Shown here: positions 18,359-60,380 of the stretch, piece after piece | Position numbering within the stretch: the stretch's first letter is position 1 | Layout: every line of letters starts with the position of its first letter | Source: Alphaproteobacteria bacterium | GTDB lineage: Bacteria > Pseudomonadota > Alphaproteobacteria > RF32 > CAG-239 | Direction of reading: 5' to 3' | Length of the DNA: 64,000 bases | Assembly (NCBI GenBank): GCA_045577985.1 | Contig: JAZNJJ010000026.1 | Coordinates: 19,403-83,402 of the forward strand | Notes under the pieces: generated by a model | What the model saw: the letters and a program-made list of their open reading frames with translations, nothing else | The model's database searches: none | Told to the model about the DNA's origin: nothing | Made by a program: the position numbers and the translations under genes

Positions 18359-21300
18359 ATGGCAAAATTTCAGAAGTTTGTTGCAACATTTGTTGCGTTA
18401 GTAGGTATCGTTCTGTTCGGCTCATGCACAGCTGATGGTTTTGAAGATACTCGTTCGTATCCTACTCATGTGGATACAATTAAGATCGTGAAAGACCATG
18501 TTATGGTTAATGACCTCACCCATGACATCGATACGGCTTTAACAGATAAGGCCAGCGATGAAATGGAAGCTAAAATGAGAATCTACAATATCCTTGACGG
18601 AGAAGTTGTTGATTCTTTTAGTATGACCGAATATCCGACTATGGATACTCACATATACTGCCTGAAGGATAATTATGTCATTACTGAAGAGCAGATTGAG
18701 CCGGTATTGGTTTCTTCTGAACTTAGAAGAAATTATAATCGTGATCATGTGAGTTATAACGGATATGAAGAAAAAGATACTTTAATTCTGTCGTTTAACG
18801 ATGGACAGGTTGTTTCTGTTCCGGTGATTATTTATGCATTTTCAGCTGAAGTTAAAGATGATGTATGCCATTTTGGTTCAGACTCATTGATTAGTGCTAA
18901 GCTGACAAAAGTGCAAAATATTAACACCTCTAAGAACACGACTAGAGCAACTTATGTTTCAAGTGTCTTAACAACTGAGTATTCTGTAGAATTGACATTT
19001 GCAGAAAAAAACACCAAGAGAGATTCTATTTTTAATGTAAATCTTAAGACTTATGTTAATCGTAAGGTTCTCTCTGAAGATGCGATTGATAAAGTTGAAG
19101 TAATTAACAAAAATCGTAAGGTTATTGATGAAACAACTGAGCAAATCTCTTTTGATAAAATGTATACCATGAAGAGTGGTGAAGTTATCAAAGAACCATT
19201 CTCTCGCATTTTGAAAAGAGAATTTAAGGGTATAGCTCCTTATGAGAAATACGTTTCTTCATTTGATTATGCCTTTGATAAATCTAATGGTGTTGTTGTT
19301 AGCGGAAATGAAAATAGTGTCGAAAAGGAAGGTAACTGGAATGTATTCGGTAAAACTGATAAATATTCAGCAAATATTTCTAATGGAATAGAGGCTGAAC
19401 TTATTGTTACAGATTATTCTCTTTATCACGAGAGAGCCGTTTACAGAGATTCTCATGTAGAAGTTGCTTTTGGATATGAAAATGTTGAAGCTACAGAAAT
19501 AGCTAGCAATGTTTCTGCCAAAGGTTCTGATAAAGAAGGTTTTGATAAGGCCGTTCTCAACAATGAGATCAGGACTCTATATCTCGGATATACTCAAAAT
19601 TTGATGGAAGATGTATATCTTTATCAAACTGCAACGAGTATTCAGGGATATGACTTGGAAAATCCTAAACTTCAGATTCTAGATGATAAGGTTATTGCCT
19701 CAATCGATTTTGTTATCAATTATACTGATGGCAAAGACGTGAGAGAAACCGACAAAATAGAACTTCCGCGTTCTATTTCTTGCCTGACAGATTGGACTTG
19801 TATTGAAGCAAATTCAAACCAGAAGACAGATACAGCTATTGTTGTTATATCTGCTTCTAATCAAAAGAGTGAAGGTTTTTGGTCTTATAAAAATCAGACC
19901 AGAAATGTTTCAACTTTAGCTCATTTGAATTCTTCTAAACAAACCAATAAATGGTCTGTGGTTGTACCAAACGAAATTGTTTATTCTCGAGAAGGAAAAA
20001 CATATAATTTTGGAGAAATAGAATTTTTTGCAGATGAAAATGGTGCCGACGTTGTCTTCGTAAAAGAAGAAAATGGACTTTCTGTTTACAAATATACCGA
20101 TAAGTTGAATGTTATTTATGGTGAAAATACTGTGAATACATCTGCTCCAGGTACAATAAAAGTTGACGGAAAGGGTATTAAGAGTAATAGCTATAAAGAC
20201 AAGAAGATCGTTGTTAATTCAAATAACGTGATTGCTTCTCTGACATGGATTACTACTTATAATGACGGCACAGAAAAGACAGAAAGTGTTAGCAAAACAT
20301 TTCCTCGTGAACTTGTTTGCAACACAAACTGGAACTCTAAAGAAGCTAATGCAAATCAGACTACTGGTAATACAAATGTATCGATAGTTAAATCTGAGCC
20401 TGTTGTAGATGGTAATTGGGTATTCATAAAAGAAACCCGTTCAATTTCAACAACAGCAAAATTGGCTTCCTCTTCTCAGGCAAATGAGTGGACTTCTATT
20501 GATCCTAACAGCATTGTTTATACTCAAAATGGTGTAACTGTTGATTTTGGAACTTTAGATTTTTCAGCTACAAAGTCTGATGCTAAGACAACACTTGAAA
20601 GCACTGTTAAAAATGTTGAGACATATAGTTACGTTTGTACTATTAATGTAGCTTTCGGTTCTAACAGTCTTAACAGTTCGGCTCCCGGTACAATTATCGT
20701 AGAAAAAGCTCGTGAAGTTGTAGATCATGAAATTCGTGATCCAAAGCTTGTTGTTAACAGTGAAGATGTTACTGCTACATTAACATGGGCAACTATCTAT
20801 AATGATGGTACTGAAGAAACAGAATCTGTGAAGCAGAGTTTTGCAAGAAGTCTTGAAGTGTATACTAACTGGTCTTCAAAGGAAAACAATGCAACTCAAA
20901 CAACAGAATCTGCCAACACATCTTTGTTGAGTTCTAACAGTAAGAAGGAAGGTTTCTTCACTTATGTAAATGAAACCAGACAGATTACTACTCTTGTAAA
21001 TTTGGCCAGCTCTACTCAGAAAAATGGCTGGAACTCTATTGATCCAAATAGCATAGTTTATTCTCGTGAGGGTAAAACTTTTGCATTTGATAAAATTGAG
21101 TTTAGCGCATCTGAGGCAGGAGCAAACGTTAAGTTGAAAAATGAGACAGCTAATAGCTCGACTTATTCTTATACAGATAAGATAAACGTTGTTTACGGTG
21201 GCAACACTAAAAATTCAACGGCAACAGGAGAGATTATTGTGGATGTTGTTGTTTCTGGTTATGATATAACAAATCCTCAGCTTATCATTAATAACGATAA

Positions 21301-22240
21301 CGTTATCGCTAAACTGAACTGGATTACTAAGTATTCTAATGGTTCAGAAACTAGCGAGGCTATAACTAAAACTTTCACTCGCTCCTTTAATTGTTATACA
21401 AACTGGAGCTCTAAAGAAGCTAATGGCAATCAAAACACTGGTTCTGCTACGGTAAGCGTTTTGAATACTAAAGCAGAAAAAGATGGGTATTGGTCTTGGA
21501 ACGTTGAAACTCGCGATATTAAAACTATTGCAAATCTCAACTCTTCCAATCAAACCAACGGATGGAAATCTATTGATCCGAACTCAATAATCTTTACACG
21601 TGAGGGTAAAACTTATGATTTTGGAAAAGTTGATTTCAATGCTATTGAGAATGGTGCAACTACCAGTATTAAATCAGAAGATGATATGGTAATCGTATAT
21701 AATTATACTGATGTTATCAACGTAAGTTTCGGTAGCAACACATTTAATAGTTCTGCTACGGGAACAATTAATGTTGAGAAGCCATGGAATCCTGATTTTC
21801 CTGCAGATTGGGGTAAGTTTGTTAAGGCTACAGCAACTGTTTCATGTAATGAAGATGTAAAAGACTGGATTTATACATGGTCATTACATTTTGAAAATGG
21901 AACTCTTCCTGTAGTGGTTAGACGTAATGCAAATGAGCCAGAAATAAACACAAATTACTTTGAGGCCATAACTGATAGTCGTTTTAATGGCGGTTCGTAT
22001 GTTAATGGCAAGTGGGTAAATTCTATTGCTTCAGATGAAAGCAACTTTATGTTGTGGACATCTCATGAAGATAAGGTGTTTAGAATGTTTACATATCCTA
22101 CAGCAACAGCTTGGAAATGGAACAATGGCAAGAATACTGTCTATACCGACGAATTTAACTTTGAACTGAAAAATGACGGCAAGGTATTAGTCATTACAAA
22201 AAATGGTAATGAATTTGCTCGTTATAAGGCTGGTAAATAA
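18359..22240 (+). CDS. 1293-aa surface lipoprotein with four tandem modules of about 180 aa (function unknown)
   Basis: Signal peptide ending LFGSC (lipobox) followed by acidic residues (CTADGFED). N/S/T-rich beta-type sequence. Internal repeats span aa 430-1143. No Shine-Dalgarno-like purine run before the ATG. Confidence 0.7.
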   Translation: MAKFQKFVATFVALVGIVLFGSCTADGFEDTRSYPTHVDTIKIVKDHVMVNDLTHDIDTALTDKASDEMEAKMRIYNILDGEVVDSFSMTEYPTMDTHIYCLKDNYVITEEQIEPVLVSSELRRNYNRDHVSYNGYEEKDTLILSFNDGQVVSVPVIIYAFSAEVKDDVCHFGSDSLISAKLTKVQNINTSKNTTRATYVSSVLTTEYSVELTFAEKNTKRDSIFNVNLKTYVNRKVLSEDAIDKVEVINKNRKVIDETTEQISFDKMYTMKSGEVIKEPFSRILKREFKGIAPYEKYVSSFDYAFDKSNGVVVSGNENSVEKEGNWNVFGKTDKYSANISNGIEAELIVTDYSLYHERAVYRDSHVEVAFGYENVEATEIASNVSAKGSDKEGFDKAVLNNEIRTLYLGYTQNLMEDVYLYQTATSIQGYDLENPKLQILDDKVIASIDFVINYTDGKDVRETDKIELPRSISCLTDWTCIEANSNQKTDTAIVVISASNQKSEGFWSYKNQTRNVSTLAHLNSSKQTNKWSVVVPNEIVYSREGKTYNFGEIEFFADENGADVVFVKEENGLSVYKYTDKLNVIYGENTVNTSAPGTIKVDGKGIKSNSYKDKKIVVNSNNVIASLTWITTYNDGTEKTESVSKTFPRELVCNTNWNSKEANANQTTGNTNVSIVKSEPVVDGNWVFIKETRSISTTAKLASSSQANEWTSIDPNSIVYTQNGVTVDFGTLDFSATKSDAKTTLESTVKNVETYSYVCTINVAFGSNSLNSSAPGTIIVEKAREVVDHEIRDPKLVVNSEDVTATLTWATIYNDGTEETESVKQSFARSLEVYTNWSSKENNATQTTESANTSLLSSNSKKEGFFTYVNETRQITTLVNLASSTQKNGWNSIDPNSIVYSREGKTFAFDKIEFSASEAGANVKLKNETANSSTYSYTDKINVVYGGNTKNSTATGEIIVDVVVSGYDITNPQLIINNDNVIAKLNWITKYSNGSETSEAITKTFTRSFNCYTNWSSKEANGNQNTGSATVSVLNTKAEKDGYWSWNVETRDIKTIANLNSSNQTNGWKSIDPNSIIFTREGKTYDFGKVDFNAIENGATTSIKSEDDMVIVYNYTDVINVSFGSNTFNSSATGTINVEKPWNPDFPADWGKFVKATATVSCNEDVKDWIYTWSLHFENGTLPVVVRRNANEPEINTNYFEAITDSRFNGGSYVNGKWVNSIASDESNFMLWTSHEDKVFRMFTYPTATAWKWNNGKNTVYTDEFNFELKNDGKVLVITKNGNEFARYKAGK
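19646..21787 (+). repeat. four tandem coding repeats (units start at 19646, 20189, 20726 and 21257; 177-181 aa each)
   Basis: Recurring blocks N.V(I/T)A.L(T/N)W(I/A)T.YNDG(T/S)E..E...K.F.R......TNW(S/N)SKEAN..Q.T ... IDPNSI(V/I)Y(S/T)REGKT..F ... Y.YTD.INV.(Y/F)G.N..NS(S/T)A.G.I.V. Confidence 0.85.
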
Positions 22241-22262
22241 ATACCAATGATCAACTTTCTAA

Positions 22263-22289
22263 CAGCACCTCATTTGAGGTGCTGTTTTT
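22263..22289 (+). terminator. rho-independent terminator of the 1293-aa gene
   Basis: CAGCACCTCAtttGAGGTGCTG followed by TTTTT. Confidence 0.8.
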
Positions 22290-22308
22290 GTTTAAATAAA
22301 AATGAAAA

Positions 22309-22340
22309 TGTCCGAAAAAAGGGTTCCTTTTTTTCGGACA
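22309..22340. repeat. 32-nt palindrome A1 (TGTCCGAAAAAAGGGTTCCTTTTTTTCGGACA), followed by T8
   Basis: Read directly. Hairpin plus T-run has the form of an intrinsic terminator. Confidence 0.9.
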
Positions 22341-22413
22341 TTTTTTTTATTAAAAAATCTTTCTCTCACAACGTAACATCAATAGGTTAAATTTTTCTAA
22401 ATTTGAAATTTCA

Positions 22414-22445
22414 TGTCCGAAAAAAAGGAACCCTTTTTTCGGACA
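22414..22445. repeat. 32-nt palindrome B1, the exact reverse complement of A1
   Basis: TGTCCGAAAAAAAGGAACCCTTTTTTCGGACA. Ends 5 nt before the SD of the pilin-like gene. Confidence 0.9.
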
Positions 22446-22463
22446 ATCAGAAGGGAGTTTATA

Positions 22464-23096
22464 ATGACAAATAGTAATCAATCTGGTCGTTCTATGATTG
22501 AAATGTTAGGTGTTTTGGCGATTATCGGCGTATTATCTGTCGGAGGAATTGCCGGATACTCTAAAGCGATGATGAAATTCAGAATCAATAAAACTATTGA
22601 TCAAGTTTCACAAATTGCACAAAATATTAGAATTTTATATGCCAGACAGAAAAATTACGGTAGTTTGAGTGCAAAAATAGTATATAAAGCAAATTTGGCA
22701 CCAAGAGAAATGTTTGAAGATGGTTCTGGTAGTTATGGCATGACTAATGCTTTTGGTGGTAGAGTTGGATTTGAAACAGCATCAAAAAGAGCTTCTCAAG
22801 ATAGTAAAGCTTTTGTTATTTCATTATATGATCTACCGGAAGAAGCGTGTATTGAACTGGCTACGCAAGATTGGGGTGGTGGCGAAGCTTCCGGTTTAAT
22901 TTCTGTAGGGATTGATACAAATTCTCGTCCTATATCTACGAGAGAAAACTGTGCAGGTGAAAGCGGTAGTGGTTATGCTATTGCTTGTGCAGGTGGTTCT
23001 GATGTTCCAGTTCCAATGCCAATAGATGTGGCTGTTGATGCTTGTAGTAATATTACAGGGTCCTCAATGGGGCGTTTAACATTCAAATTCTACTAA
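22464..23096 (+). CDS. type IV pilin-like protein, paralog P1 (atypical class III signal peptide)
   Basis: ORF 22413..23096 trimmed to MTNSNQSG|RSMIEMLGVLAIIGVLSVGG (8-aa leader ending in Gly, Glu at +5, 20-residue hydrophobic helix). C-terminal Cys pair (EEACIELATQDWG ... DVAVDACS). Confidence 0.7.
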   Translation: MTNSNQSGRSMIEMLGVLAIIGVLSVGGIAGYSKAMMKFRINKTIDQVSQIAQNIRILYARQKNYGSLSAKIVYKANLAPREMFEDGSGSYGMTNAFGGRVGFETASKRASQDSKAFVISLYDLPEEACIELATQDWGGGEASGLISVGIDTNSRPISTRENCAGESGSGYAIACAGGSDVPVPMPIDVAVDACSNITGSSMGRLTFKFY

Positions 23097-23120
23097 TCTT
23101 AAAAATTCTTTCTTCTACAC

Positions 23121-23157
23121 AAAAAAAGACTTAGTCATTAAAAACTAAGTCTTTTTC
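23121..23157. terminator. bidirectional terminator between P1 and the convergent 189-aa gene
   Basis: AGACTTAGTcattaaaaACTAAGTCT flanked by A7 and T5. Confidence 0.75.
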
Positions 23158-25060: not shown

Positions 25061-25092
25061 TGTCCGAAAAAAGGGATCCCTTTTTTCGGACA
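25061..25092. repeat. 32-nt perfect palindrome A2 (TGTCCGAAAAAAGGGATCCCTTTTTTCGGACA), followed by T7
   Basis: Read directly. Confidence 0.9.
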
Positions 25093-25165
25093 TTTTTTTC
25101 ATTAAAATTTGTTCTCCTCGTAACGTAACATCAATAGGTTAAAATTTTCTGAATTTAAGATTTTG

Positions 25166-25197
25166 TGTCCGAAAAAAGGGATCCTTTTTTTCGGACA
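25166..25197. repeat. 32-nt palindrome B2 (one C-to-T difference from A2)
   Basis: TGTCCGAAAAAAGGGATCCTTTTTTTCGGACA, located just upstream of the SD. Confidence 0.9.
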
Positions 25198-25215
25198 ATA
25201 GAAAAGGAGAATATA

Positions 25216-25839
25216 ATGAAGAAAAATAACCAATCAGGTCGTTCAATGATTGAAATGCTCGGAGTTTTGGCGATTATTGGGGTATTATCTGTAGGCGGAA
25301 TTGCCGGATACTCAAAGGCGATGATGAAATATCGAATCAATAAGACGATTGATCAAATTACACAAATTTCACAAAATGTTAGAGCTTTATACGCAAGACA
25401 AAGACAAAAAAGATATCGTAATTTATATGAGGGAATTTTATATAAAGCAAATTTAGCTCCAAAGGAAATGTTTGGTTCGGGAAATATAATGACTAACGCT
25501 TGGGGGCAAAGATTTATGGTGGGGTCTGAAGGAGATGATCAAGAAAGCTTTGGTATTGCTACCCTTGTTCCTGAAGAAGCGTGTATTGAACTTGCTACAC
25601 AAGATTGGGGGAGTCGTGATACGACAGGGTTAATTGGTGTAATAGTTAGAGAGTATGATCTATCTGGTCCTAAACCCGATTTATCCACTGGTACAATAGG
25701 TAATAATTATGCTGTAGCCGTTCCCGGCGGCTCTAAAGTTTCCGTGCCTATGCCTGTTGATATAGCTGTAAATGCTTGTTCTCTTTCATCTGGTGATTAC
25801 TTTCCTGGTTATAAAGAGATTGGATGGGTGTTCCAATAA
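25216..25839 (+). CDS. type IV pilin-like protein, paralog P2, inserted between dnaJ and dnaK on the opposite strand
   Basis: ORF 25165..25839 trimmed to MKKNNQSG|RSMIEMLGVLAIIGVLSVGG. The N-terminal 60 aa are nearly identical to P1. Conserved EEACIELATQDWG and VPMPVDIAVNACS. Confidence 0.7.
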   Translation: MKKNNQSGRSMIEMLGVLAIIGVLSVGGIAGYSKAMMKYRINKTIDQITQISQNVRALYARQRQKRYRNLYEGILYKANLAPKEMFGSGNIMTNAWGQRFMVGSEGDDQESFGIATLVPEEACIELATQDWGSRDTTGLIGVIVREYDLSGPKPDLSTGTIGNNYAVAVPGGSKVSVPMPVDIAVNACSLSSGDYFPGYKEIGWVFQ

Positions 25840-25862
25840 TTAAAGAATTCTTTCTTCTATAC

Positions 25863-25893
25863 AAAAAACCTCCCATATTGGGAGGTTTTCTTT
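25863..25893. terminator. bidirectional terminator shared by P2 (+) and dnaK (-)
   Basis: CCTCCCAtatTGGGAGG flanked by A6 and a T-run. Confidence 0.75.
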
Positions 25894-29427: not shown

Positions 29428-30051
29428 TTATCTAAATGACATTATTATTGTATTTGTATTACCACATGTATCTGTAGCAGTTCCTATACCCATAGGAGCT
29501 GGGTTTGTTGAATGCCCTGCTACAGCTAAATTAGCGGACAGTGAAGTGTTTAATCCAGATTGGATTGCACTATCAACTGAGGTTGGAGCATCCATATTAA
29601 CTGCTATGCCTCTAAAACCACTTGATGATGGACCACCCCAATTATTTGTAGCTATCTGCATACAAATATCTGTGCTTACATTTTCTAATTTTATTGAAAA
29701 TAAAACTCTTGGAGAACCAATGTAATAGATTGAATAATCAACATCTCCTGCACCAGTAAAACTAATGTTATCAGGATTAGATTCATCTTCGGTATATAAA
29801 AATGTGTCAGGTACAGCTTTAGCTTTTTTTACATAAGAATTAATTTGTGCTCCAGATGTTCCTTCATAATCTCTAGCAACAGTACGGACTTTACTGGCAA
29901 GTGTTGATACCTCATCCAATACTTCATTGATAGTGCTACTTGTTTGCATTTTATTTACTAAATTAAAACCACCAACAGATAATATTCCAACAATAGCCAG
30001 TACACCAAGCATCTCTATCATTGATCTACCTCTTTGGTAAAAATTTTTCAT
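29428..30051 (-). CDS. type IV pilin-like protein, paralog P4
   Basis: MKNFYQRG|RSMIEMLGVLAIVGILSVGG. Conserved C...IATNNWGG...SGF.GIAV and a C-terminal Cys. SD AAGGAG upstream. Confidence 0.7.
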   Translation of the reverse strand: MKNFYQRGRSMIEMLGVLAIVGILSVGGFNLVNKMQTSSTINEVLDEVSTLASKVRTVARDYEGTSGAQINSYVKKAKAVPDTFLYTEDESNPDNISFTGAGDVDYSIYYIGSPRVLFSIKLENVSTDICMQIATNNWGGPSSSGFRGIAVNMDAPTSVDSAIQSGLNTSLSANLAVAGHSTNPAPMGIGTATDTCGNTNTIIMSFR

Positions 30052-30078
30052 TTATTTTCTCCTTATTTTATATGTATT

Positions 30079-30678
30079 TTATTTACAACCTTTATACCAT
30101 AACTGAATAGTGTTATTTGAACCATTAGTACAATTTTCAACCGCTTTATCAACTGACATCGGATAATTTGATGAAAGAGAACTTACAGCAAAATCTTTGT
30201 CGGCACAATCACTTGTACAACTTTTAAAATATGAACCAACATCACTGTTGCCAATTGCAACACCTATCATTCCAGATGTTCGTCCTGTTCCCCAATCTGC
30301 GGTAGCTAATTTGATGCAACTGTCGTCAGAAAGATTGCTAATATTGATATTGAAATAGTCATTATCTCCATTAATCTGATATATTGAATCCATTATTCCA
30401 ACATATGTATTTGAACCGGAATCATAATATAAATTTGTTGGATAAGCATTTGACTTATACAAAAACAATGTATATGTTCTATAAGCTTTTTCATATTTGC
30501 AAGCAAACTTTTTTGCATATCTTGCTAAATCTGCTGTATCAGATAAAAGTTGTGCTTCGCGATGAGTTTGCATTGCTTTACCTATTATACCAAAACCACC
30601 AACAGAGAGTACTCCGACTATTGCTAAAACACTTATTGTTTCTAGCATTGTCCGACCAAGTTCACTTATTTTGAGCAT
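30079..30678 (-). CDS. type IV pilin-like protein, paralog P3
   Basis: MLKISELG|RTMLETISVLAIVGVLSVGG. Conserved DDSCIKLATADWGTGRTSGMIGVAI and a C-terminal Cys. SD GGAG upstream. Confidence 0.7.
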   Translation of the reverse strand: MLKISELGRTMLETISVLAIVGVLSVGGFGIIGKAMQTHREAQLLSDTADLARYAKKFACKYEKAYRTYTLFLYKSNAYPTNLYYDSGSNTYVGIMDSIYQINGDNDYFNINISNLSDDSCIKLATADWGTGRTSGMIGVAIGNSDVGSYFKSCTSDCADKDFAVSSLSSNYPMSVDKAVENCTNGSNNTIQLWYKGCK

Positions 30679-30734: not shown

Positions 30735-33290
30735 TTATTTTCGTTCTTCAGGTTTCATTGCTTCAGGAGCTTTCTGAATTTTCTTAATTTGCTCAGTGAC
30801 TGGCTTATATACAGTTTGTTGCCATGGACTTTCTTCAACATATTCATGCCCACAAATACTGATACCAAGACTACGTAATGCTGTTTCAGTTGGGATAAAC
30901 ATATCTAATCCATCATCTGTTTTTGTGCCAGAATGAGCCATACCATTTATTGTACAATCTTTGTAAATTAAAGCTCCGCCAACTGTAACATTTTGAATGA
31001 ATGTGTTAGCCAGTATTTCTGCTCCTTTATCTTCTGTATATCGATATCCTTCAATTCGAGCACTATTTTCTAAATAGTCTTCGCCATTTTTAAAGTCAGA
31101 TACATCTAATAGACCTACAGTTAAGAACCCACTTTTACCAACTTCTGGTAAGCTTAAGTTAAGAGCAAGAGGAGTATATTCTGTGCTTTTATCAAGCATG
31201 AACAAAGCTGTATTTTTGCTCGGATTAATGCGTACGGCACGAGCCTTTAATTCGTCATTACGAATTGTTTTAATATCATAACTGTTGTTTTCTTTATCTA
31301 CTAAATCTCCTGCAGTTAAAACGAATCTATCTGAGATTAATAGTCCTGCACCTTTTCTTCCATTTGGACTGGTTATTTGAACTATTGATGAACGCATACG
31401 ATGTATGGTTTCAGGTGTTAATGCTTTGCATGGATCTGTTTCTACTACACAGAAATTATCTAAGCTTTTTGCATCTCCTGTTTCAACCCATGTATCGTCG
31501 ACAACTTGGCACATTCCATCGTCTTTCACGTTACCATTTTCATCTATACAAGAATTTATGATATCAAAACTGCTGTATACATTTCCGTCTTCGAAGATAA
31601 CATCACATCCTTCTGAAACAACCAGACCATCTGATATTACTCCGCCAGAATCTAATACGACATCGCAAACTTCTTCATTTATAACAATTCCATCGCTGTT
31701 TACACCACCCTCAATAGTAATACCATCAGCTTTAACTCCACCATCTGCAACAATGGCATCGCAAGTTTCTTTGGTGAGAATTATTCCATCAGCCACAACA
31801 CCGCCTTTTGCTAATATATTATCACAAACCTCTTCAGTGATCGTAATTCCATCAGCAGTTACTCCGCCTTTCGCAACTATAGCATCACAGGTTTCTTCTG
31901 TAAGGATGATTCCATCAGCTACAACCCCACCTTTATTTGTTATATTATCACAAACTTCTTCCGTAATAATAATTCCGTCAGCATTTGTTCCGCCACTAGA
32001 AACAATTGTGTTGCAAATTTCTTCTTTGATAGAGAAACCATTTCCGTTAACTCCACCATCTTCATAAATCTCAACAACTGGAATAGCTGAGGTTGTTGGC
32101 GGACAGCTACAAGTACAAACACCATCTTCATGGAAAACTGTTACAGGTTCAGGTATAACAGGTGTAACAGGAACTGTTTCGGCAATAGGAGTAAATTGAA
32201 CAGCTTGTTCACAAGTTTGTGGACATACGCAAGGAGGACATGGACGACATTTAGAAATATCTGCTCCTGGACGACCTAACTCACAATCTTTGGCTTGATC
32301 ATATTCTTTTCTAAATCCACATTTTAATGGATTTAAGGCTCTTTCTTCTTCAATTAATGCATTACGTTGCATTGCCATCTCTGTAGGGCTTATACGTTGC
32401 ATTAATCTATCTTCAAAACCAGGTAGATTGCGTAAATTACTTGTTGCATCAGCAAATGCACGTTCAATTAATTTAACTTCACCATTTATTTCCCCGTTGT
32501 ATAATTCTCCATAACCAACACTTTCACCTTTCCAATATACTTTATTTTTTGTTAAATCCATTAAACGCCAGGTGATAGTTATTTCTGAAGAACCACTTCT
32601 AATATCTTCTTTTTTAGCTTCATCCCAATTATATTCATCACAAATATTCATAAAATAATCGGTAATCTCTGCCGTTAAAACATATTCAGGAAGCTCTGAA
32701 GGAACTTCTTCTAAACACAAATCTTGAGGCATTGGCAAAACCTTATAACAATCACCAACTACTTCTTCAAATACTGTATTAAAGGCAATATTTTTTTCCA
32801 TAATACGCCCCTTATTCAATACAGCTTCCTTATCAAAACGGCGGCAACCGAAAATACGGAATCGATAATTTCCTAATTTATTGGTATAAGGAGAATCTAA
32901 TTCACTATCTTTTATTCTAAAGTCTACATGAGATAAAGTAATTGGAGCCATTTGACAACAATTACGTTCTACCGCCTCAGCAACAACAGGATTATATGGA
33001 ACATAGTTTTTAACTTTTACACGCTCTACGCATTTTTTGCAGGTACCAGGGAAAAGACTGCCGTCTTTTGTGCAACGAACACATGGGCCTCCAGGAAAAA
33101 GACTTCCATCTTTATCTGTTGAACAATTAGGACAAATTCCTCCCGGAAATAAACTTCCATCCTTATTTAATCGCACATTTTGAGGAACGTTATTTTCATT
33201 ACCATATCCGGCAACAACTGTGCCGGCAGTAAGAATACTAAATCCTAATACAGCGGATAATATATATAACAATTTGTTATGTTTATTCAT
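30735..33290 (-). CDS. 851-aa secreted Cys-rich repeat protein with a C-terminal degenerate trypsin-like domain
   Basis: Signal peptide; 3x KDGSLFPGG-C..C (aa 43-83); Cys/Pro-rich linker (CRPCPPCVCPQTC); about seven 21-aa repeats GGV.ADGI.(I/L)TEE.CD.I..K (aa 412-570); C-terminal GAGLLISDRFVLTAGDLV ... NTALFMLD ... VTVGGALIY, which resembles a chymotrypsin-fold domain with all three triad positions replaced. Confidence 0.7.
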   Translation of the reverse strand: MNKHNKLLYILSAVLGFSILTAGTVVAGYGNENNVPQNVRLNKDGSLFPGGICPNCSTDKDGSLFPGGPCVRCTKDGSLFPGTCKKCVERVKVKNYVPYNPVVAEAVERNCCQMAPITLSHVDFRIKDSELDSPYTNKLGNYRFRIFGCRRFDKEAVLNKGRIMEKNIAFNTVFEEVVGDCYKVLPMPQDLCLEEVPSELPEYVLTAEITDYFMNICDEYNWDEAKKEDIRSGSSEITITWRLMDLTKNKVYWKGESVGYGELYNGEINGEVKLIERAFADATSNLRNLPGFEDRLMQRISPTEMAMQRNALIEEERALNPLKCGFRKEYDQAKDCELGRPGADISKCRPCPPCVCPQTCEQAVQFTPIAETVPVTPVIPEPVTVFHEDGVCTCSCPPTTSAIPVVEIYEDGGVNGNGFSIKEEICNTIVSSGGTNADGIIITEEVCDNITNKGGVVADGIILTEETCDAIVAKGGVTADGITITEEVCDNILAKGGVVADGIILTKETCDAIVADGGVKADGITIEGGVNSDGIVINEEVCDVVLDSGGVISDGLVVSEGCDVIFEDGNVYSSFDIINSCIDENGNVKDDGMCQVVDDTWVETGDAKSLDNFCVVETDPCKALTPETIHRMRSSIVQITSPNGRKGAGLLISDRFVLTAGDLVDKENNSYDIKTIRNDELKARAVRINPSKNTALFMLDKSTEYTPLALNLSLPEVGKSGFLTVGLLDVSDFKNGEDYLENSARIEGYRYTEDKGAEILANTFIQNVTVGGALIYKDCTINGMAHSGTKTDDGLDMFIPTETALRSLGISICGHEYVEESPWQQTVYKPVTEQIKKIQKAPEAMKPEERK
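31581..32057 (-). repeat. about seven tandem 63-nt (21-aa) coding repeats inside the 851-aa gene
   Basis: GGVVADGIILTEETCDAIVAK / GGVTADGITITEEVCDNILAK and similar units. They also produce a long antisense shadow ORF (31405..32067). Confidence 0.85.
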
Positions 33291-43391: not shown

Positions 43392-43482
43392 GGATAGATG
43401 GCCGAGTGGTCGAAGGCGCACGATTGGAAATCGTGTGTACCTCCAAAGGGTACCGTGAGTTCGAATCTCACTCTATCCGCCA
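43392..43482 (+). tRNA. tRNA-Ser (anticodon GGA), CCA encoded
   Basis: GGATAGA...TCTATCC acceptor stem, GCCGAGTGGTCGAAGGC D-arm, CACGA-TTGGAAA-TCGTG anticodon arm, long variable arm, GAGTTCGAATCTC T-arm, GCCA 3' end. 91 nt. Confidence 0.92.
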
Positions 43483-56493: not shown

Positions 56494-57927
56494 ATGGCTG
56501 AAGAAGCAATAAACAATGAAGAATTCTCCATTAATGACCAATGGAATCAAATTTGCAGTCAATTAAAGATGGAATTTGGTGAAACCGCCTTTGACAGTTG
56601 GTTAAAACCTTTAAGCATCAGCTCCTTTGATGACGGAGTTATGAATATTTGTGCGCCAACTGCCTTCATGAAAAACTGGGTTATAGCACACTACTCAGAT
56701 AGAATCCATAAGATATGGGAACATAAGAATCCAAACATTAAAAAAGTTCAATTCATTGTGCAAAATGTTGCACGCTCTGAAAAATCTAATATGTTGCATG
56801 GCGATACATCTTTACTCAAAAAGATTAAATCGACTCCAACACCTCAAAGTATATATGGACTAAATAACATTGCTAATTCTTATGCTGAAGCAGGTGAACA
56901 ATATTTATCATCAAAATTAAATCCTGCATATACATTTGAAAATTTTGTTGTTGGAAAGACGAATGAATTTGCTTATGTTGCAGCTCGTAAGGTAGCAGAA
57001 TCCAGAAATGTTTCTTTCAACCCTCTATTTTTGTATTCAGGTGTTGGTTTAGGAAAAACTCACTTAATGCACGCTATCGCTTGGCACATTAAAAAGCAGG
57101 ATCCAACAAGAAATGTTGTTTATATTTCAGCAGAACAGTTCTTATACAAATTTGTAAATGCATTGCGTTACAAAGATACTGCAGCCTTTAAAGAACAATT
57201 CCGTTCAGTTGATGTTTTAATGATAGATGATGTTCAATTTTTAGCAAATAAAGAAAAGACTCAAGATGAATTTTTCTATACATTTAACTCATTAATGGAA
57301 GGTGGCAGACAAATTATATTATCTGCAGATAAGTCCCCTAGCGATTTAGATGGTATAGAATCAAGATTAAAGTCTCGTCTGAATAGTGGTTTAGTAGCAG
57401 ATATTATGCCAACTGATTTTGATTTAAGAATTGGTATATTGAACAAAAAAGCTGCTCAATTAGGTATTGAATTACCTCAAAACGTTGCTGAATTTTTAGC
57501 TCAAAAGATTTCATCTAATATCAGAGAATTGGAGGGTTCTTTGAAAAGAATTGCCGCTCATTCTCAACTATTGTCAGGTCATGAAATTACTCTTGATATG
57601 ACACAAGATGTTTTGAAAGATATGCTTCGTTCAATTGATAGAAAAACAACAATTGATGAAATTCAGAAAAAAGTTGCCGAATACTTTAATATTTCTGTTA
57701 AAGAAATGCAATCTTCTCGCAGAGCAAGAAATGTTGCCAGACCTCGTCAAATTGCTATGTATTTAGCAAAACAATTAACTTCTCGCTCTCTTCCTGAAAT
57801 AGGACGAAAGTTTGATAGAGATCATACAACTGTTATGCACGCTGTTCGCAAAGTTGAAGAATTAATCATTGAAGATACTTCTTTGGCAGAGAGTGTTGAT
57901 GCATTACGTCGCTCTTTAGAAAATTAA
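56494..57927 (+). CDS. dnaA: chromosomal replication initiator DnaA
   Basis: AAA+ Walker A GVGLGKTHLMHAI, Walker B LMIDDVQF, and the C-terminal DNA-binding signature (IGRKFDRDHTTVMHAVRKV). Confidence 0.95.
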   Translation: MAEEAINNEEFSINDQWNQICSQLKMEFGETAFDSWLKPLSISSFDDGVMNICAPTAFMKNWVIAHYSDRIHKIWEHKNPNIKKVQFIVQNVARSEKSNMLHGDTSLLKKIKSTPTPQSIYGLNNIANSYAEAGEQYLSSKLNPAYTFENFVVGKTNEFAYVAARKVAESRNVSFNPLFLYSGVGLGKTHLMHAIAWHIKKQDPTRNVVYISAEQFLYKFVNALRYKDTAAFKEQFRSVDVLMIDDVQFLANKEKTQDEFFYTFNSLMEGGRQIILSADKSPSDLDGIESRLKSRLNSGLVADIMPTDFDLRIGILNKKAAQLGIELPQNVAEFLAQKISSNIRELEGSLKRIAAHSQLLSGHEITLDMTQDVLKDMLRSIDRKTTIDEIQKKVAEYFNISVKEMQSSRRARNVARPRQIAMYLAKQLTSRSLPEIGRKFDRDHTTVMHAVRKVEELIIEDTSLAESVDALRRSLEN

Positions 57928-58057
57928 TAGTAAAAAAAACTGTTGACGACTCATTATTTTATCTTCTGATTTAGATGTATTTTTGTTACTCTAGTATCGT
58001 GAAGAGAAACGATGAGTCGTTTTTTATATGTGTAATATTTTAGGTTGGTAGAAAAAA

Positions 58058-59176
58058 ATGAAGTTTACAATAGAAAGAGCTGTTTTATTAAAAACTCTGG
58101 GGCATGTGCAAAACATTGTAGAAAAAAGAAATACTGTTCCAGTATTATCAAATGTTAGAATCGAAGCTAACAACGAAGGTATTAGTTTCAAAGCCACAGA
58201 TATGGATACTGAAATAACTGAAATTGTTGATGCAAAAATATTAGAAAATGGTGCAATTACAGCTCCGGCTCATATGTTGTATGACATTGTAAGAAAATTG
58301 TCTGATGGTTCAGAAATCGATTTAATTTATCCTGATGAAAAAGAACAGCTTACGATTGCTTCGGGACGTTCAAAATTCTCTTTATCAACTATTGGTGTTG
58401 AAGATTTCCCTGTTATTTCAACAGATGCATTGCCTACAAGTTTTGAAATGAATCGTGATGAATTAAAGGATGTAATTGATCGCACTCAATTTGCAGCATC
58501 TACAGAAGAAACAAGATACTATTTGAATGGTTTATATATTCATCCCAAAAATGAGGGTGATACAAAAGTTTTGAGAATCGTCGCAACTGATGGTCATAGA
58601 TTGGCTTGTGTAGAGACTCCATTGCCAACCGGAGCTGAAAATATGGAAGGAGTTATTCTTCCTCGTAAAACAGTTGCCGAAATTCGTAAACTTTTAGATG
58701 ATACTTCTGCAGAATCCATCAATATTTCTCTTTCAGACAGTAAAGTTCGTTTTGTTTTAGATGACGTAACATTAGCATCAAAATTAATTGATGGAACATA
58801 TCCTGATTATGAAAGAGTGATACCTACTGATAATGATAAAATTTTAGAGCTTAAAGTAAAAACTTTGGCAACTGCAGTTGATCGTGTTTCTGTTGTTGCA
58901 GAAAGAACTAGAGCTATAAAAATGATAGCAAATAAAAATCATGTTATTATAACAACATCTAGTCCTGATTTGGGTAGTGCTATTGAAGAAATTGAAGCAA
59001 CTTATGATAGCGAATCTTTGGAGATTGGTTATAATTTCCGTTACCTTTTAGATATCTTATCTGAAATTAAAGGTGAAACAGCTAAATTTAGTTTCAGTGA
59101 TGGAGCATCTCCATCTGTAATACATGATACATCTGATGCTAGTGCTATTTATGTATTAATGCCTATGAGGGTGTAA
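58058..59176 (+). CDS. dnaN: DNA polymerase III beta sliding clamp
   Basis: 372 aa, MKF.I.R..L........V....T.P.LSNV... with a three-domain layout. Lies between dnaA and recF. Confidence 0.93.
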   Translation: MKFTIERAVLLKTLGHVQNIVEKRNTVPVLSNVRIEANNEGISFKATDMDTEITEIVDAKILENGAITAPAHMLYDIVRKLSDGSEIDLIYPDEKEQLTIASGRSKFSLSTIGVEDFPVISTDALPTSFEMNRDELKDVIDRTQFAASTEETRYYLNGLYIHPKNEGDTKVLRIVATDGHRLACVETPLPTGAENMEGVILPRKTVAEIRKLLDDTSAESINISLSDSKVRFVLDDVTLASKLIDGTYPDYERVIPTDNDKILELKVKTLATAVDRVSVVAERTRAIKMIANKNHVIITTSSPDLGSAIEEIEATYDSESLEIGYNFRYLLDILSEIKGETAKFSFSDGASPSVIHDTSDASAIYVLMPMRV

Positions 59177-59177
59177 G

Positions 59178-60380
59178 TTGAACGACTTAGCAGTTAAATT
59201 GAAAGAAATAACAAAGTTGAAGTCAGGTATTAAACGCCTGACTTTAACTAATTTTAGAAATTATAAAAATCTGCGAATCGAAACAGAAGTTTCCCCCATA
59301 ATAATTACCGGTGAAAATGGGTCTGGAAAAACAAATATATTAGAGGCTATCTCATTTCTATCTCCAGGTAGAGGTTTAAGAGGAGCCAGACTCGCTGATA
59401 TAAAGAGATTATCGGCAAATGATGATAATTTACTAATTAATGAAGGTTGGAGTGTAGCTGCAAATATATTAAAAAATGACGAAGAACATCAAATAGGAAC
59501 AGCATCTCAAAAGACGAATCGTGAAGATAATGAAGACGATAGCATTCATTCTTTTGAAAGAAGAATTGTAAAAATAAATCAACAAAAAATTTCACAACAA
59601 TCCGAGTTAGGAAAATATATTTCAACTATATGGATAACTCCGCAAATGGATCGCTTGTTTTTAGGTGGAACGCAACCTCGTCGTAGCTTCTTAGATAGAT
59701 TGGTTTATGCCTTTGATTTAGAACATGCAAAAAGAACTGCTAATTTTGAACATTTATATAGACAGTGGTTTCAGTTAATAAAATCTGGTTGCAAAGATAT
59801 TAATTGGTTAGCTTCTATTGAAACAGATTTAGCTTCATTGGGGGTTGCTATTGCAGCAGCACGTAGAGAGCAAATAGCAAAATTAAATACTTTTATTTTA
59901 AATGAACCAGATGACATATTTCCTGATGTACGTTTGGAATTAAGCGGAACAATTGAGAAGCTATTAGATACAATGCCGGCTATAAAAGTTGAAGATTTTT
60001 ATATTGACCTATTAGCAAAGCAACGACATCGTGTTTTATATAATGAATATGTAGATGGTATTAATAGAACTGATTTTAAGGTGTTTTTTAAGAAAAAAGA
60101 TATGCCCGCTGAAATGTGTTCTACGGGAGAACAGAAAGCTCTCTTAATTAGCATTATATTAGCACAAACAAAATGCCAAATCTTGGATAAAGGCTTTTCA
60201 CCTATACTGTTACTAGATGAAGTTACTACACATCTAGATGACAAAAAAAGAGATGCTTTATTGGAAAAAATCCAAAACTTATCTATACAAGCATGGATAA
60301 CATCAACAGAACCACAAAATTTTTCGGCATTAAAAGGAAAAGCTCAATTTTTTAATATTGAAAATAGCACTCTATTTTAA
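59178..60380 (+). CDS. recF: DNA replication and repair protein RecF
   Basis: L.L.NFRNY, Walker A GENGSGKTNILEAI, signature STGEQKAL, and LLLDEV. TTG start. Confidence 0.9.
   Translation: MNDLAVKLKEITKLKSGIKRLTLTNFRNYKNLRIETEVSPIIITGENGSGKTNILEAISFLSPGRGLRGARLADIKRLSANDDNLLINEGWSVAANILKNDEEHQIGTASQKTNREDNEDDSIHSFERRIVKINQQKISQQSELGKYISTIWITPQMDRLFLGGTQPRRSFLDRLVYAFDLEHAKRTANFEHLYRQWFQLIKSGCKDINWLASIETDLASLGVAIAAARREQIAKLNTFILNEPDDIFPDVRLELSGTIEKLLDTMPAIKVEDFYIDLLAKQRHRVLYNEYVDGINRTDFKVFFKKKDMPAEMCSTGEQKALLISIILAQTKCQILDKGFSPILLLDEVTTHLDDKKRDALLEKIQNLSIQAWITSTEPQNFSALKGKAQFFNIENSTLF

Follow-up and report, generated by a model that had tools for sequence, protein, structure and literature searches.

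A paired-palindrome leader conserved upstream of type IVb major pilin genes in an uncultured alphaproteobacterial lineage

Two type IVb major pilin genes in a 64,000-nt stretch of DNA (the window; contig JAZNJJ010000026.1, positions 19,403 to 83,402) from an uncultured alphaproteobacterial lineage, known only through gut and rumen metagenome assemblies, are preceded by the same non-coding leader, in which two copies of a 32-nt palindrome (HP1 and HP2) stand on either side of a 73-nt spacer. This leader is a real, strongly conserved, pilin-specific and lineage-restricted cis-element. We read it, with a probability of roughly 40%, as an insulated pilin expression leader composed of a terminator (HP1), a promoter region (the spacer) and an mRNA stem-loop (HP2). 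The leader belongs among known kinds of element and is not a new category.

Architecture of the leader at the two pilin loci

The module has the same order at both loci, with HP1, preceded by an A-run and followed by a T-run, then the spacer, HP2 (the same palindrome), a gap of 5-6 nt, a Shine-Dalgarno sequence and the ATG start codon. The features, in window coordinates, are as follows.

Locus 1
22309-22340, both strands: HP1, TGTCCG-A6-GGGTTCC-T7-CGGACA, with arms TGTCCGAAAAAA and TTTTTTCGGACA and centre GGGTTCCT
22341-22413, plus strand: spacer, 73 nt, opening with a T8 run; presumed promoter region
22414-22445, both strands: HP2, centre AGGAACCC; exact reverse complement of HP1, no U-tract after it
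22451-22457 and 22464-22466, plus strand: Shine-Dalgarno sequence AAGGGAG, 5 nt from HP2, and ATG
22464-23096, plus strand: type IVb major pilin 1, 210 aa; Pfam PilS_N 1.1e-11, Bundlin 9.6e-11

Locus 2
25061-25092, both strands: HP1, a perfect palindrome with centre GGGATCCC, A-run before and T-run after; 17-bp stem terminator, -25.1 kcal/mol
25093-25165, plus strand: spacer, 73 nt, with its core at 25122-25143
25166-25197, both strands: HP2, centre GGGATCCT; G.U pair in the plus-strand RNA, -19.6 kcal/mol
25204-25209, plus strand: Shine-Dalgarno sequence AAGGAG
25216 (ATG) to 25839, plus strand: type IVb major pilin 2, 207 aa; Pfam PilS_N 3e-10, Bundlin 6.4e-9

Both proteins combine the PilS/Bundlin domain with the N-terminal methylation motif of type IVb pilins, their leader peptides ending in the cleavage motif G|RSMIEML, and the N_methyl motif itself is weak in Pfam (0.0025 for pilin 1 and 0.0015 for pilin 2). 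Pilin 1 has more than 7900 homologues. With its flanking A-run and T-run, HP1 of locus 1 extends over 22305-22345; it is terminator-like on both strands, with an RNA fold of -23 kcal/mol (z = -7.2). HP2 of the same locus folds at -16.3 kcal/mol and contains an A.C mismatch on the plus strand. An inverted-repeat search finds HP1 and HP2 of locus 1 to be complementary at 33/33 positions (100%) and those of locus 2 at 97%, HP2 there being one base off HP1, and hence between the two window loci the exact mirror relation is confined to locus 1.

The conserved blocks of the locus 1 spacer are AACGTAACATCAATAGGTTAAA (22370-22391) and TCTAAATTT (22396-22404). The first of these, a 22-nt core, is identical at 25122-25143 in locus 2, and shuffles of the window give 0.00 matches to it. 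Likewise, the arm motif TGTCCGAAAAAAGG, with up to two mismatches allowed, has eight matches in the window, all of them within the four palindromes, when 0.51 are expected. A first-pass annotation made from the sequence alone had described these palindromes, the 73-nt spacers, the core and the Shine-Dalgarno sequences, and all of its statements about them stood up to rechecking. It had also let the leader begin at 22296. A shared module does exist, but its conserved part begins at the A-run just before HP1, at about 22305.

Leader identity between the two loci is 83% (30/32 positions in HP1, 58/73 in the spacer and 29/32 in HP2), against 45-53% at four-fold synonymous sites of the adjoining genes, of which 10/19 agree in the first 60 codons and 15/33 in the remaining coding sequence. 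The leader is therefore far better conserved than neighbouring synonymous positions, and the proposal made at first sight, that it is conserved at least as well as these, holds. In the 60 nt upstream of HP1, 17/60 positions agree between the loci, and this DNA is unrelated.

The module is specific to the pilin genes of one lineage

A look-up of pilin homologues in ENA assemblies yielded 25 related loci. The palindrome occurs 49 times in 180 kb of DNA from the lineage, each time on the sense strand ahead of a pilin gene and never elsewhere. Measured from the SMIEML codons, HP2 ends 45-57 nt and HP1 ends 150-162 nt upstream. Genomes of the lineage carry at least five or six pilin paralogues, which are scattered among housekeeping genes and have SIR2, BOF, OMP, Lon and prolyl-tRNA-synthetase genes and dnaJ as neighbours. 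The palindrome is thus no generic repetitive extragenic palindromic (REP) or terminator element scattered after unrelated genes, an outcome that the first-pass annotation had named as fatal to its proposal.

Outside the lineage, a palindrome scan of genome_contigs, which holds one genome per GTDB species, returned only one unrelated Prevotella terminator, a scan of JGI metagenomes for the palindrome pair returned only two unrelated long palindromes, and a palindrome scan of viral contigs gave no matches. At gathering score the sole Rfam 15 match in the window is a tRNA (43392-43479), and the leader belongs to no family there; a full-text literature search with the arm sequence yielded no relevant paper. 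Two distant pilin homologues (L017 and L018, 52-57% identity) have short leaders without palindromes. The module is thus a recent invention of one lineage, and an element common to the whole pilin family is ruled out. A promoter region in these two loci that resembles the reverse complement of the spacer was judged to be a chance likeness.

Some irregularities in the assemblies and gene calls were also considered. Contigs that end in or at the leader (L006, L013, L016, L025, L026, L032 and the contig end of L001) might be taken for a sign of inversion and were attributed to the multi-copy palindromic repeat. Two contigs start 1 nt before HP2, and orientation heterogeneity could also cause such ends. 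One 896-nt contig (L027), which joins the upstream flank of L014 to the pilin and downstream terminator of L022, was treated as a probable assembly chimera through the repeated leader and not as a rearrangement. Finally, an in-frame start at the HP2 edge (MSEKKDPFFRT... in P0012, P0015 and P0047) was rejected as coding sequence; the codon is CTG in L001, the frame is lost in L014, and no Shine-Dalgarno sequence precedes it. The spurious N-terminus MSEK(K/R)DPFFRT that gene callers produce in this way is a usable database marker for the palindrome.

Invariant arms, fixed spacing and mirrored centres

The palindrome has a 12-8-12 layout. Its arms, TGTCCGAAAAAA and TTTTTTCGGACA, are identical in all 49 copies and variation is confined to the central 8 bp, even though the flanks and spacer around the arms diverge by 20-50%. 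By their centres, the double leaders fall into three classes.

Class A: HP1 centre GGGTTCCT, HP2 centre AGGAACCC; exact reverse complements
Class B: HP1 centre GGGATCCC, HP2 centre GGGATCCT; one base different
Class C: HP1 centre GGGATCCT, HP2 centre AGGATCCC; exact reverse complements

Conversion of class C to class A requires one change in HP1 together with the mirrored, complementary change in HP2 (TT/AA against AT/AT). HP1 and HP2 are therefore coupled as inverted repeats, which their individual hairpin roles do not explain. This agrees with the first-pass view that the copies are inverted repeats of each other and not merely two hairpins, a relation that is exact in locus 1 and recurs, with a compensated central change, in class C. 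For the mirrored centres, the simplest explanation is template switching or gene conversion between inverted repeats that lie close together, and the same processes would maintain the exact inverted copies.

Spacing is equally constrained. The spacer measures 73 nt in 9/9 distinct leader variants, including class C, in which it is about 50% diverged and retains only ATCAATA..TTAAA at the same position. Its homopolymer runs vary by substitution and never in length, a run of T6-T8 directly follows HP1 in all nine variants, and the distance from HP2 to the ATG is 18 nt in nearly all of them. The start codon overlaps a perfect TATAAT (as TATAATG) at 22459-22466 and 25211-25218 and in several other leaders of classes A and B, but not in the remaining variants; in AT-rich DNA this overlap is probably coincidental.

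Leaders with a single palindrome also occur. That of the intact pilin P0057, seen in four assemblies (L028-L031), has its palindrome (centre GGGATCCC) about 50 nt before the start codon, in the order A-run, palindrome, 18 nt including the Shine-Dalgarno sequence, and ATG; HP1 and the spacer are missing. Deletion of the 105-bp HP1-HP2 unit would be expected to leave such a structure, and P0057 may be a promoterless, silent copy. A second lone palindrome (L003:338-615, the palindrome at 338-369) stands before a 75-aa pilin remnant, 10 nt upstream of the Shine-Dalgarno sequence. The remnant adjoins a divergent rpsL gene, and an internal deletion has fused its N-terminal helix to a C-terminal ...KFY. 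Both leaders keep HP2 and the Shine-Dalgarno sequence, which are thus the universal part of the leader, with HP1 and the spacer as an addition or a deletable unit.

A proposed insulated expression cassette

In the reading that we prefer, HP1 with its A-run and U-run would be a strong bidirectional intrinsic terminator that ends or blocks transcription from the neighbouring gene, and the spacer would carry the pilin promoter. The two best-conserved spacer blocks, if they occupy the -35 and -10 positions, put the predicted transcription start about 3-8 nt before HP2. HP2 would then form a stable stem-loop, placed at the 5' end of the mRNA or close to it and separated by 5 nt from the Shine-Dalgarno sequence. 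In that position, by analogy with known 5' stabiliser hairpins, it might shield the abundant pilin message from 5'-end-dependent decay and keep the ribosome-binding site exposed.

Support for this arrangement is provided by the different contexts of the two palindromes. A terminator scan gives both a score and the U-tract/A-run context for HP1 alone, at both loci and on both strands; a G+C-containing stem-loop followed directly by a U-tract is present in HP1 at both loci and absent from HP2. In L003 and L022, moreover, HP1 begins 20-24 nt past the stop codon of a co-directional gene, with no other hairpin seen in the gap. Because HP1 has this U-tract and terminator score, and HP2 and the Shine-Dalgarno sequence are kept in every paralogue, an insulating terminator combined with a hairpin in the 5' untranslated region (UTR) fits best among the three readings that the first-pass annotation had offered. 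Within the palindrome, the pair formed by positions 13 and 20 is seen as G-C, G.T, A.C and a compensated A-T; in the palindrome of L032 (centre AGGATCCT) the change from G-C to A-T is compensated and perfect symmetry is restored. This series is the path expected for a stem and supports one. The cassette is also favoured by the fixed placement of all 49 palindrome copies before pilin genes, by leader conservation far above that of synonymous sites and by the constant spacer orientation in the assembled instances.

Candidate promoter elements resembling those of extracytoplasmic function (ECF) sigma factors are found at locus 1 (-35 GTAACAT at 22373-22379, -10 TCTAA at 22396-22400) and at locus 2 (GTAACAT at 25125-25131, TCTGA at 25148-25152). 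GTAAC-N18-TCTRA occurs exactly in the window only at the two leaders, although with one mismatch allowed its matches are at chance level, and we keep it as a lead only. GTAACAT...(16 nt)...TCTRA has the geometry of promoters of the ECF/sigma-E type, and from this we infer the promoter assignment. The documented -35 box of the ECF/sigma-E type is GGAACTT (PMC8103513).

Several observations weigh against the cassette. A sigma-70 scan of the spacer gave no match of at least 9/12 on either strand, and the ECF-like motif is absent from the class C, L028 and L032 leaders; consensus sequences for sigma-54 and sigma-28 were not found in the spacer by eye. RNAalifold, applied to eight leaders, detected no covariation, the outer stem included; in the spacer, a 4-bp TAAC/GTTA dyad was the sole conserved structure. 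The HP2 of classes A and C bears the weaker A.C form on the mRNA strand (-16.3 versus -19.6 kcal/mol), which selection on an RNA hairpin alone would not favour. Moreover, the 48 arm nucleotides of each leader are free of any substitution, even of neutral G.U pairs, and neither this nor the constant spacer length of 73 nt in nine variants, one of them about 50% diverged, follows from a terminator and a 5' hairpin alone. Because arm invariance and spacing are left over in this way, we suppose that one sequence-specific factor probably also recognises the palindrome, either as a hairpin or as DNA. Because the HP2 apex and the Shine-Dalgarno sequence each contain GGA, control of the CsrA type was considered too; it was set aside, given that the GGA comes as a by-product of the palindrome and that CsrA is not common among Alphaproteobacteria.

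Looping operators, an invertible promoter and other readings

The first alternative to the expression cassette is a pair of operators, which we regard as doubtful but viable. A dyad-symmetric regulator would bind HP2, between the promoter and the Shine-Dalgarno sequence, and HP1, 105 bp upstream on the same face of the helix, and the resulting loop would silence the promoter; single-palindrome leaders would be a one-operator version and are accommodated without difficulty. Two dyad sites in helical phase do bracket the presumed promoter, at roughly -90 and +16, and their spacing is invariant: a 73-nt spacer in nine variants corresponds to 105 bp from centre to centre, or 10.0 turns at 10.5 bp per turn. 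The 12-bp arms, in addition, are unchanged in 49/49 copies while flanks and spacer diverge by 20-50%. Paired operators, another of the first-pass readings, are in fact the simplest account of the arms and the 105-bp spacing, but no candidate regulator gene is linked to the pilin loci examined. Furthermore, a perfect palindrome of 32 bp is long for the operator of a dimer, the terminator context that the A-run and T-run give HP1 would be a coincidence, a protein contacting the arms has no need of a compensated central 13/20 pair, and the mirrored centres are left unexplained.

A distinctly unlikely alternative is a minimal invertible promoter (inverton). Here the palindromes would be core sites, with 12-bp arms and an 8-bp crossover, for a recombinase encoded elsewhere, and the 73-bp promoter segment would flip, giving ON/OFF phase variation of each paralogue in which the centres are asymmetric and mirrored. 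As a corollary, recombination of the sites as direct repeats would delete the promoter and leave silent single-palindrome leaders. Inverted repeats with arms of 32-33 nt do flank a segment, and their 12-8-12 layout, with invariant arms and variation only in the central 8 bp, is like the 13-8-13 layout of loxP and FRT. The centres of classes A and C are exact reverse complements, the compensated change included, and the strict spacing can be read as a demand of synapsis in a tiny loop. In addition, the target is a multi-copy surface-antigen family of a gut bacterium, and the single-palindrome leaders resemble deletion products in combining a 5' flank of the HP1 type (A-run) with a 3' flank of the HP2 type.

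Nevertheless, no inverted spacer occurs among the roughly 20 assembled leaders, which represent six loci and at least ten metagenome assemblies; the count comes from consensus assemblies, which hide minority orientations. The core always points towards the pilin, and a common orientation of all paralogues is unexpected for independent switches. Integrase, resolvase or invertase Pfam domains are absent from window open reading frames (ORFs) of at least 120 aa and from the gene tables of the fetched flanks, which agrees with the first-pass remark that no recombinase gene is visible in the window. The minimum spacing reported between sites is 82 bp for Cre and 74 bp for FLP (PMC4929723), and 73 bp is below the former and at the latter. 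Moreover, the centres GGGATCCC and AGGATCCT are fully symmetric and give a site no direction, those of class B differ by one base, and a sigma-70 scan recognises no promoter in either orientation of the spacer, the ECF-like motif facing the gene in classes A and B only. With no inverted instance, no recombinase domain in the window and so short a spacing, the invertible promoter envisaged by the first-pass annotation is unsupported. The broader proposition that the palindromes are sites of a dedicated trans-acting protein, be it a recombinase or a looping regulator, which controls the dispersed family of at least five or six major-pilin paralogues, we hold to be unlikely.

An RNA switch or processing site is very unlikely. 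In read-through RNA, HP1 and HP2 would pair as a 32-bp duplex and be cut by RNase III or bound by a duplex factor, which would separate the read-through RNA from the pilin mRNA or set the level of the message. Folding of the whole leader gives this long-range duplex as the minimum-energy structure (-58 kcal/mol, z = -7.4), and the complementarity of HP1 and HP2 is perfect where the local hairpins are imperfect (classes A and C), as long-range pairing predicts. However, a strong terminator at HP1 leaves few transcripts with both copies, local hairpins form first during transcription, class B leaders are imperfectly complementary, single-palindrome leaders cannot form the duplex at all, and the 73-nt constraint is unexplained. 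A mobile or selfish repeat (a 137-bp miniature inverted-repeat transposable element, or a Correia-like or REPIN-like element, with 32-bp terminal inverted repeats and placed before pilins by chance) is close to refuted, because, although a spacer of about 70 bp between two inverted 32-bp ends recalls REP doublets and Correia elements in size and layout, all 49 copies precede pilins at a fixed distance from the start codon, the window has only four copies, all before pilins, element-like copies are missing from genome_contigs (GTDB) genomes, JGI metagenomes and viral contigs, and the window contains no transposase.

Apparent replacement of pilin alleles between strains

When the window is compared over 12.6 kb with a contig from another sample (L004), each 100-bp bin shows 97-100% identity, in most cases 99-100%, with the exception of the pilin cassettes, in which identity falls to 57-86% (22290-23100 and 25300-25880). 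The divergent block of locus 1 opens about 17 nt before HP1 and closes just past the stop codon, and the leader is of class A in the window and of class B in L004. At locus 2 the block begins inside the coding sequence, past the conserved N-terminal helix, and extends to the 3' UTR. Because divergence is confined to the cassettes, the variable regions of the pilins appear to have been replaced between near-identical strains, and the sequences suggest recombinational replacement of pilin alleles.

The 3' edge of the divergent blocks coincides with a 27-nt motif, TAAAAATTCTTTCTTCTACACAAAAAA, which comes immediately after the stop codon in most of the pilin paralogues examined (also in L003, L004, L014, L022 and L028), with differing locus-specific terminators next to it. 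In the window these features are:

23100-23127, plus strand: 3' boundary motif TAAAAATTCTTTCTTCTACACAAAAAA, 27 nt, right after the pilin 1 stop codon; followed by a locus-specific terminator hairpin at 23128-23156
25841-25868, plus strand: 3' boundary motif TAAAGAATTCTTTCTTCTATACAAAAAA, after pilin 2; followed by a locus-specific terminator at 25869-25890

The leader with the N-terminal coding block on one side and the post-stop motif on the other serve as conserved boundaries of allele exchange between strains, and concerted evolution may help to keep the leader copies alike. The motif TAAAAATTCTTTCTTCTACACAAAAAA is similar to the spacer at positions 11-26 (AAAATTTGTTCTTCTCA) and shows partial complementarity to the purine-rich Shine-Dalgarno region.

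Genomic setting

The window is AT-rich chromosomal DNA (about 29-36% G+C) whose genes include dnaA-dnaN-recF, dnaK/dnaJ, secDF and suf genes. The dnaA-dnaN-recF cluster lies within 56494-60380 and the cumulative GC skew is lowest near 48-50 kb; the replication origin region is probably included in the window. Pilin locus 1 is immediately preceded by an ORF of 1293 aa (18359-22240) without a Pfam match, which has internal repeats of about 190 aa with recurring ...NWSSKEAN..QTTG... segments. It is followed by

22261-22286, plus strand: intrinsic terminator of the 1293-aa gene (terminator scan: 11-bp stem, six G-C pairs, T-run)

and therefore HP1 is not needed to end that gene at locus 1. The gene upstream of locus 2 is a divergent dnaJ.

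Two adjacent minus-strand genes (29428-30678) encode pilin-like proteins of 207 and 199 aa, the first with the GRSMIEML motif. They lack a palindrome leader, are almost unchanged from strain to strain and are possibly minor pilins. Among the window genes, neither a pilus assembly ATPase nor a secretin was recognised. An 851-aa minus-strand ORF (30735-33290) with only a weak trypsin-like match contains tandem 63-nt (21-codon) repeats at 31714-32069.

Implications and comparison with known systems

If the leader is an insulated expression cassette, it would be a natural and compact one, in which terminator and hairpin are built from the same sequence and which is reused before every variable pilin gene of a poorly known gut lineage. 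Its invariant arms, fixed 73-nt spacing and mirrored centres, which simple hairpin function does not explain, point to a factor that recognises the palindrome, and such a factor would be a handle on how these bacteria choose among many pilin variants. Were that factor a recombinase, the 73-bp segment would rank as the smallest known natural promoter that can be inverted or excised, with mirrored asymmetric centres leading to inversion and symmetric centres to deletion and silent single-palindrome pilins; together with the swapping of cassettes between strains, this would amount to a new system of pilus phase and antigenic variation in uncultured gut Alphaproteobacteria. Allele swapping among strains that are at least 99% identical elsewhere suggests strong diversifying pressure, from phage or host, on the type IVb pili of rumen and gut bacteria.

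As a multigene surface-antigen family with a conserved 5' leader and 3' flank between which variable regions are exchanged, the pilins recall the Mycoplasma vsa, vsp and vpma families and the Neisseria pilE/pilS system. Unlike these, most of the copies examined here carry a seemingly full promoter leader, the paralogues are scattered and not clustered, and exchange is seen only between strains and not within a clone.

Invertible promoters such as E. coli fimS, the Bacteroides capsule promoters and C. difficile flgB and cwpV likewise have inverted repeats bracketing a short segment, here a presumed promoter, before a gene for a surface structure, and in Bacteroides one distant recombinase serves many loci with the same repeats. 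Known switches of this kind are about 150-320 bp long and have repeats of 9-25 bp that are not themselves palindromes. The pilin leaders differ in having a segment of 73 bp and repeats that are themselves hairpins; no inverted copy occurs among the assembled leaders, and no recombinase is seen in the window or flanks. The palindromes share with loxP and FRT inverted arms of 12-13 bp, an 8-bp centre and variation that is confined to the centre and matched between partners, but several of their centres are perfectly symmetric and their spacing is at or below the looping minimum of Cre and FLP.

Two dyad sites that lie an integral number of helical turns apart and bracket a promoter (presumed here) are also a feature of lac O1/O3 (about 92 bp) and gal OE/OI (about 113 bp), and the GATC boxes of pap, about 102 bp apart, resemble the palindromes in preceding a fimbrial subunit gene as inverted sites that each contain a GATC. 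The agreement with pap is incomplete, for the pilin leaders have no GATC pair at 102-103 bp; GATC is central in classes B and C, 105 bp apart, and absent from both palindromes of locus 1 (GGGTTCC / GGAACCC). To our knowledge, moreover, Dam/Lrp control is not expected in Alphaproteobacteria. Unlike the sites of lac, gal and pap, those described here are perfect 32-bp palindromes that double as a terminator.

The closest counterparts of the proposed cassette are found among terminators and message stabilisers. HP1, like bidirectional terminator insulators, has a G+C-anchored stem between an upstream A-run and a downstream U-run. HP2, as predicted here from its sequence, would be comparable to the ompA 5' UTR hairpin, a stable stem-loop just upstream of the Shine-Dalgarno sequence of a highly expressed surface-protein gene. 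In contrast to ordinary terminators and stabilisers, however, the terminator and the UTR hairpin of the pilin leaders share one 32-nt sequence, present as exact inverted copies at a fixed distance of 73 nt and with a stem that is invariant across paralogues.

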